Positions 2,051 to 4,087 of a stretch of DNA of 4,087 nucleotides are shown piece after piece. The translations under genes and the position numbers were made by a program. Where the stretch lies: IMG/VR virus record IMGVR_UViG_2606217110_000019, positions 1-4,087 of that record; one strand, given 5' to 3'. Numbering within the stretch: position 1 is the first letter of the stretch; every line of letters begins with the position of its first letter. The stretch is from a virus (taxonomy: Duplodnaviria; Heunggongvirae; Uroviricota; Caudoviricetes). Below the pieces are notes generated by a model that saw only the letters and a list, made by a program, of their open reading frames with translations, was not told where the DNA came from and searched no databases.

Positions 2051-2103
2051 CAACATGTTGGGTGGAGCGGACAATCCAAATGGTGAATTACTGTCTTATA
2101 TCA
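2051..2103. repeat. IS terminal inverted-repeat region, istA-proximal end, including a perfect 10-bp palindrome CAACATGTTG
   Basis: AGCGGACA at 2066-2073 is the complement of the TGTCCGCT motif; palindrome at 2051-2060. The reverse complement of about 2066-2090 matches window 18-39. The outer boundary is uncertain. Confidence 0.45.
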
Positions 2104-2334
2104 TTGGCGCTGACAACGCTGCTCGTTGAGTTGTGATTTTGCTTCTTCCAGTCCATCCAGCAAATCAGCGATAATATCCGCTTCCCGATGACGGATGTGA
2201 CGCTTAAACGCAGCAAGAGCCGCATCACAATCCCGTTCAGCATTTGGGCTGTCCGGGATAGCCTGATACCACGCCAGCGTCGACTGATAGTTTTGTGCTG
2301 CCTCACGAAGCGCCTCATAGTTAACCTCTCTCAT
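2101..2334 (-). CDS. Hypothetical small acidic phage protein (77 aa); last gene of the coupled cassette, ending at the IS junction
   Basis: ATG at 2332-2334 overlaps the TGA of the upstream gene (ATGA at 2331-2334). Predicted helical, acidic protein with no motif I recognise. The TGA stop at 2101-2103 lies at the predicted IS boundary, so the native C-terminus may be altered. Confidence 0.5.
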   Translation of the reverse strand: MREVNYEALREAAQNYQSTLAWYQAIPDSPNAERDCDAALAAFKRHIRHREADIIADLLDGLEEAKSQLNEQRCQRQ

Positions 2335-2627
2335 TGAGCCACCTCCTGATAAATCACCGCATGCCCCAGTTTCTCCGCCAGTGCCAGCTCTGCCTTAGCG
2401 CCCGCTGACCGCTGCCAGCCTTTCAGCATGTAAATCGCATCCACACAACGAATCATTGCCATGCAAATATCCATGTAGTGCGGCTGTGTCAGCCCGTCCG
2501 GAAGTACTGCCGGGTTCAAGACTGTATGCCCTTCCCGTTTCAGTTCCTCTTCCGCCTTGTGGAACGCCTCACGGTTGAAATTTTTATACCCGGTCATTGG
2601 ACCGGCAATATAAACTCTCACCCTCAC
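2331..2627 (-). CDS. DUF4406 / nucleoside 2-deoxyribosyltransferase-like small phage protein (98 aa)
   Basis: N-terminal VYIAGPMTG motif resembles the Y-x-AGP nucleoside-binding motif of the NDT-like fold; a Glu-rich C-terminal segment (GAKAELALAEKLG) may hold the catalytic Glu. Starts with GTG at 2625-2627, overlapping the upstream TGA (GTGA). Family assignment is from memory, not a search. Confidence 0.65.
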   Translation of the reverse strand: MRVRVYIAGPMTGYKNFNREAFHKAEEELKREGHTVLNPAVLPDGLTQPHYMDICMAMIRCVDAIYMLKGWQRSAGAKAELALAEKLGHAVIYQEVAQ

Positions 2628-2941
2628 TCCTGAACTCTCCTGTCGAAATAAACGTAGTTATTCACTGTGCGCAACGGCATTCCAAATTTTCTGGCGATTT
2701 CTCTCCTGGGTACGCCATGCTGATGCAGCTGTCGCGCCAGTTCAATATCACTCTGCGGATATTTTGTTGACTGGTGATAATCACCCCGTAACATCAGGCT
2801 GACACCCAGTTCCCGCGCTTTCGTTCTGACAGCATCACCTGTACGACCGGTCAGCCTCCCAATGCTTTCGACCGTCATCGTTCCCGCACACTGCCGGAGT
2901 ATCATGATTTCAGCCTCGTACCACTTCTTCCAGCCACTCAC
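2624..2941 (-). CDS. Small phage HTH DNA-binding protein (105 aa; possibly 93 aa from an internal ATG)
   Basis: C-terminal HTH-like segment [21 protein letters not shown] and a second candidate, [25 protein letters not shown]. The GTG at 2939-2941 overlaps the TGA of the upstream gene; an alternative ATG at 2903-2905 is preceded by GAGG. Confidence 0.6.
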
Positions 2942-3699
2942 CGCTGCAGCTCTCCGGTCGCGGTAATATCACGAAGAATATCCCGGTGCTTGTTCAGCTC
3001 CCGCAGCGCGGCGCAGACTCGTTCCCACTTCTGGACATGACTTTTCGCCCGACGCAGTTCGAGGTTTGCCATATGCAGCGATGGTAAAATCAGGTCATCC
3101 GCTCGCGTTTCAGTAAACGATGGCAGCGACTGCACAATGCCCGCTACAGTTTCTGTTTTAATTTCTTCCTGTGTTGCGGCTTCCCGGACTGGTAACGCAA
3201 CACCTGCTGGCTGAGGAAAGGCCTTACCATCATTTTCCGTTACCGATGCTGCTTTCGGCTCTGCTGGTAAATTACCGCCCGGCATGCAGTAACGAAATTT
3301 ACCGCTCTGATTAACGCGTGCCAGCCGCCCCGTTGCAGTTACCACCGCCAGCGTGGAAGCAACCTTGCGAGTACTGATGCCGAACTTACCCGCCAGTTCT
3401 TCACACGTTTTAGCCCCATCCTGACCGATAAACTCAATCATCATGTCTGCTGTAACTTTTTGTTCGACCTCCCCGGTCAGCATATCCTGTGCTTCAGATT
3501 TTACTGGCCGCTCTTCGGTTACCAGGGATTCACCTTCGCCAGCCAGAAACCAGGTGTGACCAGTTTTATCAACGACGCCATTTCTTTTGAGTTCCCACAG
3601 CTCGTTGAGAACCTCTTCACGACTGATATCAAGTCGCGCGGCCAGTTCTACCGATGTGGCTTTTCCCATTGCTTTCAGTGCGTCAAAAACGGTTTCCAT
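2938..3699 (-). CDS. Phage protein with two winged-helix-like modules (DUF1627-like, 253 aa)
   Basis: ATG at 3697-3699 with a strong GGAGG Shine-Dalgarno 8 nt upstream. Two similar wHTH-like segments ([30 protein letters not shown] and [33 protein letters not shown]) separated by an acidic linker. The DUF1627 resemblance is recalled, not searched. Confidence 0.75.
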
Positions 3700-3707
3700 T
3701 AAAATTT

Positions 3708-3712
3708 CCTCC
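3708..3712 (-). promoter_or_regulatory. Shine-Dalgarno (GGAGG) for the 253-aa gene
   Basis: Reverse complement of cctcc at 3708-3712, 8-nt spacer to the ATG; lies in the 21-bp gap after the dnaC-like stop. Confidence 0.55.
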
Positions 3713-3720
3713 GGACAAAA

Positions 3721-4087
3721 TTACTTCACAACCCTCAGGTGTCTGACATTCGAACGCCAGCTCTCCCAGTTAAAATTCACCCAGCGACCACCGTTCATGA
3801 CCATGCGGTCCATCACACGCTCGCCAAGAAGCGTACTCATCGCTACGTGGTTCAGGTTCGTCAGCATTCCGACACTACGCATCGAAGCCGTTCTGCGGTC
3901 GACTATCTGGTTCAGTGTGACCTGCTCGTTGCGCGTATCCCGCTGCATTCCGATTTCATCCAGGACAAGCAGGTCAACATCACACAACCCCTGTAAAAAT
4001 TTTTCGCCTGAGTTTTTGTTGTCGTAGCTGTTGTGTAACGCCAGCATCACATCAGCCACCGTTATCACAATCACGCTGCGACCTTTC
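3721..4087 (-). CDS. dnaC: DnaC-like replicative helicase loader, C-terminal part (5' end lies beyond the window)
   Basis: Translation ...KGRSVIVITVADVMLA...DVDLLVLDEIGMQ...IVDRR...GMLTNLN...LGERVMDRM...WVNFNWESWR is closely collinear with the C-terminal half of E. coli DnaC (Walker B, sensor region, conserved C-terminal tail). The frame stays open to the window edge; TAA stop at 3721-3723. Confidence 0.88.
   Translation of the reverse strand, partial: KGRSVIVITVADVMLALHNSYDNKNSGEKFLQGLCDVDLLVLDEIGMQRDTRNEQVTLNQIVDRRTASMRSVGMLTNLNHVAMSTLLGERVMDRMVMNGGRWVNFNWESWRSNVRHLRVVK

Follow-up and report, generated by a model that had tools for sequence, protein, structure and literature searches.

A known insertion sequence of the IS21 family, ISEc62, has very probably transposed into a 153-codon ead/Ea22-like gene of a prophage in Escherichia coli, entering after codon 73 in the orientation of the phage operon. 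The event is best read as a simple insertion that would have inactivated the gene, reduced the expression of the distal genes and exposed the element to phage read-through transcription. The window, by which is meant the whole stretch of DNA that was analysed, is the entire draft contig JNMR01000099.1 (4,087 bp) of assembly GCA_000700445.1, from E. coli 3-267-03_S4_C2. Its features are collected in Table 1; every long ORF in the ORF list lies on the minus strand. A sequence-only reading of this DNA had already placed an IS21-family element beside a 77-aa ORF and in the orientation of the phage operon, and on both points it is borne out by the Pfam matches of istA and istB and by the copies of ISEc62 annotated in RefSeq.

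The phage genes upstream of the element (2331-4087, minus strand) form a co-oriented early operon that is syntenic with three other loci, and their matches are Rac-like lambdoid phages and prophages. Identity with the closest IS-free prophage is 100% over 2116-2700, after which another gene, for a protein of 93 aa, replaces that for the 105-aa HTH protein, a member of phrog_323 ('transcriptional regulator, D5-like'); a mosaic boundary lies at about 2700-2941 of the window, against 4509-4790 of that prophage locus. Two AAA+ genes of the IstB/DnaC type are present, the true istB and the phage DnaC-like loader. The latter scores 25.8 bits against Pfam IstB_IS21, as against 294 bits for the former, and could be mistaken for a second IS fragment. 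The contig end at 4087 falls inside this DnaC-like gene, which is common to many prophages, and the other end falls within ISEc62 near its terminus; both ends are repeat boundaries, and the IS part of the contig may therefore be a consensus of several genomic copies. A search with Rfam found no RNA families in the window.

Table 1. Features of the 4,087-bp window, with the evidence on which each assignment is based.
Feature	Positions	Strand	Basis
ISEc62, nt 1-2115 of the 2,125-bp element	1-2115	minus	full-length matches elsewhere
Right-end repeat region of ISEc62, incomplete	1-73	minus	
istB, 264/265-aa AAA+ helper ATPase	48-842	minus	Pfam IstB_IS21, 294 bits; RefSeq
istA, 390-aa DDE transposase	842-2014	minus	Pfam HTH, rve, Mu-transpos_C_2; RefSeq
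Left terminal inverted-repeat region of ISEc62	2066-2115	minus	
IS-derived ORF tail, TGT CAG CGC CAA TGA (CQRQ + stop)	2101-2115	minus	
Chimeric 77-aa ORF, Ead_Ea22 Pfam match	2101-2334	minus	ORF list; Pfam PF13935
Native prophage part of the 77-aa ORF, codons 1-73	2116-2334	minus	alignment to IS-free alleles
DUF4406 protein	2331-2627	minus	Pfam; prophage synteny
105-aa HTH protein	2624-2941	minus	Pfam; prophage synteny
DUF1627 protein	2938-3699	minus	Pfam; prophage synteny
DnaC-like helicase loader, fragment	3721 to beyond 4087	minus	Pfam; prophage synteny

Three independent lines of evidence place the istA-proximal terminus of the element at position 2115. With 2060-2700 of the window as the query, records with IS sequence alone match as far as query position 56 (2115), and those with prophage sequence alone match from query position 57 (2116), one of them at 100% over 2116-2700. 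In 12 of 12 copies of ISEc62 from unrelated contexts the terminus reads ...GGCGCTGACA, which is 2106-2115 of the window and ends at 2115. The prophages of NZ_CM128596.1 and NZ_AP019803.1, both of which lack the IS, agree with the window at every position through ...CTCAACGAGCAGCGT and then diverge; the last stretch common to both, ...GAGCAGCGT, ends at 2116, and past the junction they read GAGTATTACGAAGG... whereas the window reads TGTCAGCGCCAATGATATAAG.... Alignment to IS-free prophages, which had been recommended for finding the insertion point, thus puts the break exactly between 2116 and 2115, and on the minus strand the junction is ...GAG CAG CGT / TGT CAG CGC CAA TGA. The sequence-only reading had equated the TGA at 2101-2103 with the IS terminus, an equation that the matching records, the 12 copies and the two IS-free prophages all contradict. 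Since the terminus is at 2115, this TGA is nt 13-15 of the IS. The boundary had been put 12-15 nt too far into the element, and in consequence a gene cut in half went unseen.

A join of prophage to IS could also come from a chimera, put together in error where the short-read draft meets a repeat, and the contig is indeed short, with both of its ends in repeated sequence. Such an origin is extremely unlikely, however, because an identical junction is found in a separate assembly (JOQW01000106.1, GCA_000714295.1, identical to the window contig over 401 nt across the junction) and because the break coincides to the nucleotide with the canonical TG... terminus common to the 12 copies, which is a signature of transposition and not of k-mer collapse. 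The insertion is real and confined to one E. coli lineage. It is absent from 5,426 complete E. coli genomes, among which the best coverage of the window, 52%, is that of the IS alone, and the observed prophage-IS junction has no match in genome_contigs. A plus-strand hairpin at 2114-2128 runs antisense to all the genes and owes its existence to the junction.

The 77-aa ORF is made up of 73 native codons (2334-2116), four IS-encoded codons for CQRQ (codons 74-77; 2115-2104) and an IS-encoded TGA (2103-2101). Its product equals the first 73 residues of the intact allele followed by CQRQ. That allele is an ead/Ea22-like protein of 153 aa (WP_001209475.1), encoded by a gene of 462 nt, so that 80 residues (52%) have been lost; the C-terminal truncation that had been suspected is thereby established as a 153-aa allele cut after residue 73. 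The intact 462-nt gene is present at a coverage of at least 80% in 836 of 5,426 complete E. coli genomes, and an E. coli genome may carry up to seven related gene copies. Two origins had been proposed for the stop codon. According to the first, the 77-aa gene is intact and ends in a TGA of its own, directly beyond which the IS landed. Apart from the appearance of the ORF, which is a clean ATG-to-TGA frame with a Pfam hit above threshold (PF13935, Ead_Ea22, 31.4 bits against a cut-off of 27), nothing speaks for this origin, and it deserves practically no credit: the match extends only over profile positions 2-82 of 139, the IS terminus at 2115 makes the TGA part of the element, and uninterrupted homologues continue for 80 codons more, to 153 aa. 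Homologues ending in the same C-terminal residues and stop, which would have spoken for it, were not what was found; the IS-free alleles read on instead. According to the second origin, the native 3' end was replaced and the IS supplies the stop. The part concerning the stop stands, as the stop and the CQRQ before it do come from the IS, but the gene was more likely split than replaced.

At the left end of ISEc62 each of the three entering frames meets a stop within 28 nt, giving the tails CQRQ, xSAPMI and xVSANDIRQ, each followed by its stop, and any gene hit in this orientation therefore gains a short IS-encoded tail. The two terminal repeats are near-identical, so that in frame 0 the first four residues added to a gene are CQRQ, whichever end it is entered from; entry from the right end in frame 0 stays open for 47 codons, whereas entry from the left end stops at once.

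In Ea22 proteins a short N-terminal segment and a coiled coil jointly bear the Ead_Ea22 signature, and a C-terminal domain that varies comes after them (PMC10834534, PMC7093339). The intact 153-aa allele scores 46.7 bits against PF13935, over residues 3-65, and shows a weak likeness to MucB_RseB at residues 65-116; among solved structures there is no relative by sequence, the best E-value being 0.47. The 77-aa product still has the N-terminal helices and the first part of the long helix bearing the Ead_Ea22 signature, and the C-terminal half is gone. It does not reach the full architecture of N-terminal segment, coiled coil and C-terminal domain, since it ends at native residue 73, in the third helix. 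With the C-terminal half lost, the gene has most likely been inactivated by the insertion.

A residual function for the product may nevertheless be considered, e.g. as a dominant-negative partner that engages full-length Ead/Ea22-like proteins, encoded by other prophages of the cell, through the helical or oligomerisation region. A single-sequence AlphaFold model gives a mean pLDDT of 79.5 and predicts helices at 6-25, 32-45 and 49-76, which would make the retained part a folded unit of three helices. In this mosaic family, whose full-length members oligomerise, the conserved module consists of the N-terminal region and the coiled coil (PMC10834534), and the related copies in an E. coli genome, up to seven, would offer partners. 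Against this, the third predicted helix runs through the junction, and the break would therefore lie inside a helix. There is also no sign of selection, since an exact-protein look-up finds the 77-aa protein on only two contigs, JNMR01000099.1 and JOQW01000106.1, apparently from one isolate series. Such a function is accordingly considered very improbable, and inactivation is the preferred reading. The 90% cluster that includes the chimeric protein comprises 117 proteins; among those listed, lengths range from 47 to 92 aa, and the name is nearly always that of a 'partial' ead/Ea22-like protein. This suggests that draft contigs often break within the ead/Ea22-like gene, because the conserved N-terminal module is common to prophages while the C-terminal part varies.

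The gene shares with the Ea22 of lambda and of Stx phages the Ead_Ea22 signature in an N-terminal helical region and the combination of a conserved N-terminus with a variable C-terminus. The two differ in position, however. In lambda, ea22 lies in the exo-xis region of the leftward operon, whereas the gene of the window type belongs to the rightward operon, downstream of the replication genes, and in the IS-free relatives it is found between the replication genes and the rusA and Q-like genes. It is not positionally equivalent to lambda ea22, and the pro-lysogenic effect of ea22 comes from experiments on lambda and Phi24B (PMC7093339).

The element is ISEc62, an already known member of the IS21 family. 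Identical copies are annotated by RefSeq as 'IS21-like element ISEc62 family transposase', and full-length matches occur in many plasmid and chromosomal contexts. With the common RefSeq-annotated copies as the reference, 2,114 of the 2,115 visible nucleotides agree (99.95% identity). The sole mismatch, at window position 1889, is G on the plus strand here and T elsewhere; it gives IstA aspartate in place of glutamate at residue 42 (E42D, relative to WP_000952425.1), just past the first HTH domain, which is assigned to residues 1-39 in the IS5376 structure paper. All 12 copies examined, from unrelated chromosomal and plasmid sites, are 2,125 bp long and have common termini, TGTCAACGCC... and ...GGCGCTGACA. 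The last 10 nt of the element, GGCGTTGACA on the gene strand, lie beyond position 1 of the window, where the contig ends. The gene pair is that of the IS21 family, with istA (HTH, rve and Mu-transpos_C_2 domains; its ATG at IS nt 102) followed by istB, the stop of the first overlapping the start of the second at 842-845. The ends are likewise of the IS21 type, as the left 12 nt, TGTCAGCGCCAA, differ from the right 12 nt, TGTCAACGCCAA, at a single position. The internal repeat at 2066-2087 has its partner at 18-39, and the right end carries direct repeats at 8-27 and 54-73, together with two TGTCCGCT motifs.

The copies of ISEc62 in pAPEC3701 (NZ_CP127301.1) and in ETEC TW10598 and B2C have the same istA and istB, termini and length of 2,125 bp; they occupy other insertion sites, and the copy in the window differs further in the E42D change of IstA. 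With the prototypes IS21 and IS5376 the element has in common an istA-istB pair with overlapping stop and start, TG...CA termini, end repeats and short target duplications, for which the range of the IS21 family is 4-8 bp. In the sampled copies of ISEc62 the duplication is mostly of 4 bp, in contrast to the 5 bp of IS5376 in vitro (PMC10122671). In IS21 the -35 box lies in the right TIR and the -10 box in the left TIR, and a single element has only a weak promoter of its own (PMC10122671), because the two boxes sit at opposite ends. ISEc62 may share this arrangement, in which they meet only at a tandem junction. Its true right terminus, 10 nt outside the window, finishes in TTGACA, a perfect -35 hexamer, and a -10-like TATAAG occupies nt 16-21 of the left end (window 2100-2095); by sequence match, the two would be separated by a spacer of 17-18 nt at a tandem or circle junction of 2-3 nt. 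Judged by these motifs, the ends would be compatible with the split-promoter layout of IS21. The TGA of the chimeric ORF is directly upstream of the TATAAG. The terminal TTGACA might also have formed a hybrid outward promoter with a -10 box of the predicted downstream flank; this reading was rejected, as the best candidate for such a box agrees at three of six positions.

In the proposed course of events, the 2,125-bp ISEc62 would have transposed, after codon 73 and co-oriented with the operon, into the 153-codon ead/Ea22-like gene. The prophage is of the Rac-like lambdoid type, and this gene would have followed the replication genes in its rightward early operon. The left end of the element would then have added Cys-Gln-Arg-Gln and a TGA in frame, making the 77-aa chimeric ORF. 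Most likely this was a simple insertion, with a predicted duplication of 4 bp, GCGT (ACGC on the plus strand), or of AGCGT. The far junction is then expected to read TTGGCGTTGACA, followed by GCGT or AGCGT and then GAGTATTACGAAGGCG.

Only the istA-proximal junction lies in the window, as the contig stops 10 nt before the far end of the IS; JOQW01000106.1 likewise ends inside the element, and pattern scans for the predicted second junction, with a duplication of 0-8 bp allowed, gave no match in genome_contigs or metagenome_contigs. A reading in which the junction marks an IS-mediated deletion or inversion, or recombination between copies, so that the 3' half of the gene and the downstream prophage are absent or not adjacent, takes its support from this position of the contig end. 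It is further favoured by the multi-copy state of the element, since genomes that bear ISEc62 usually have it in 4-9 places per record among the matches listed, and by the one copy in 12 that lacks a duplication, as expected after recombination between copies. The remaining 11 of the 12 sampled copies are nonetheless simple insertions flanked by duplications, of 4 bp in nine (CTCA in one case) and of 5 bp in two, and the window itself bears no sign of rearrangement. A rearranged locus is therefore regarded as unlikely, if less so than misassembly, and simple insertion is retained.

The copy without a duplication is on a plasmid (NZ_AP043645.1); its flanks, ...cgtcgc and ccgccg..., are consistent with recombination between two copies or with an adjacent deletion. 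It is one of four sampled copies that lie inside other transposase genes (IS110, IS3 twice and IS66), and of two further copies one is in an RHS element, the other in a traG pseudogene. Several of the flanks are similar to the ACGCTGCT of the window, namely ATGCTGCT, TATGCTGC and ACGCTTCC. This likeness may reflect a weak target preference or sampling bias, as the sampled copies were chosen for matches that extend past the end of the IS.

Classical polar insertions are those of IS1 and IS2 in gal and in the early operons of lambda. They and the present case have in common that the gene hit is truncated and the distal genes are cut off from their promoter. The present case differs in that its polarity is a prediction from synteny, in that antitermination could suppress it and in that the element is co-oriented and has no strong predicted terminator. 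In the IS-free relatives the gene downstream of ead encodes a protein of 118 aa and starts 23 nt inside the 3' end of ead, on the same strand. It is followed by a DUF7167 gene, two small ORFs, hokD, a DUF968 gene and rusA, then by a Q-like antiterminator gene (DUF1133; phrog_753 at 3.2e-78), and after this by a methylase gene, tRNA genes, lysis genes, terminase and structural genes. The claim that the insertion separates downstream genes from their upstream promoter is thus supported by synteny in the IS-free relatives, and polarity is plausible, since the same strand continues to the late genes in those relatives. A simple insertion would put 2.1 kb, with two translated IS genes, between the early promoter and the distal genes; it would also leave the 3' ead fragment, in which the only in-frame start codon is codon 117, untranslated. 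With two IS genes in front of them, and a distance to the early promoter that would have grown by at least 2.1 kb, the distal genes are probably expressed less, and phage antitermination could offset this polarity.

In the direction of the element, 86 nt separate the chimeric stop from the ATG of istA. No promoter-like sites were found in 1900-2700, and three terminator-like sites were found across the window, against 3.5 ± 1.8 expected from shuffled sequence; around the junction, neither kind of site is commoner than in shuffled sequence. On the minus strand the only terminator candidate, a weak hairpin, occupies 1978-1960, within the 5' end of istA. As there is no convincing terminator on the way, and as single elements of the IS21 type have only a weak promoter of their own, phage early transcription probably continues into istA-istB. 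It may be speculated further that induction of the prophage would drive a burst of IstA and IstB and transposition of ISEc62, while the insertion would lower the expression of the Q-like antiterminator and thereby cripple that of the late genes, which would make the element a prophage-locked, induction-responsive IS; this scenario is rather improbable.

Disruption of prophage accessory genes by insertion sequences is commonplace, and the event described here is a routine one, caused by a known element, that raises no new question. The main value of the result is as a correction. An IS boundary that is read by eye from an adjoining stop codon can err by a few codons, and in this case the error altered the biological conclusion. 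The 77-aa 'gene' has been deposited as hypothetical protein AD16_5431 (KDU19521.1), and this record should be annotated as a disrupted ead/Ea22-like gene: AD16_5431 is an IS-made truncation of a common 153-aa prophage protein, and not a distinct short member of the family.
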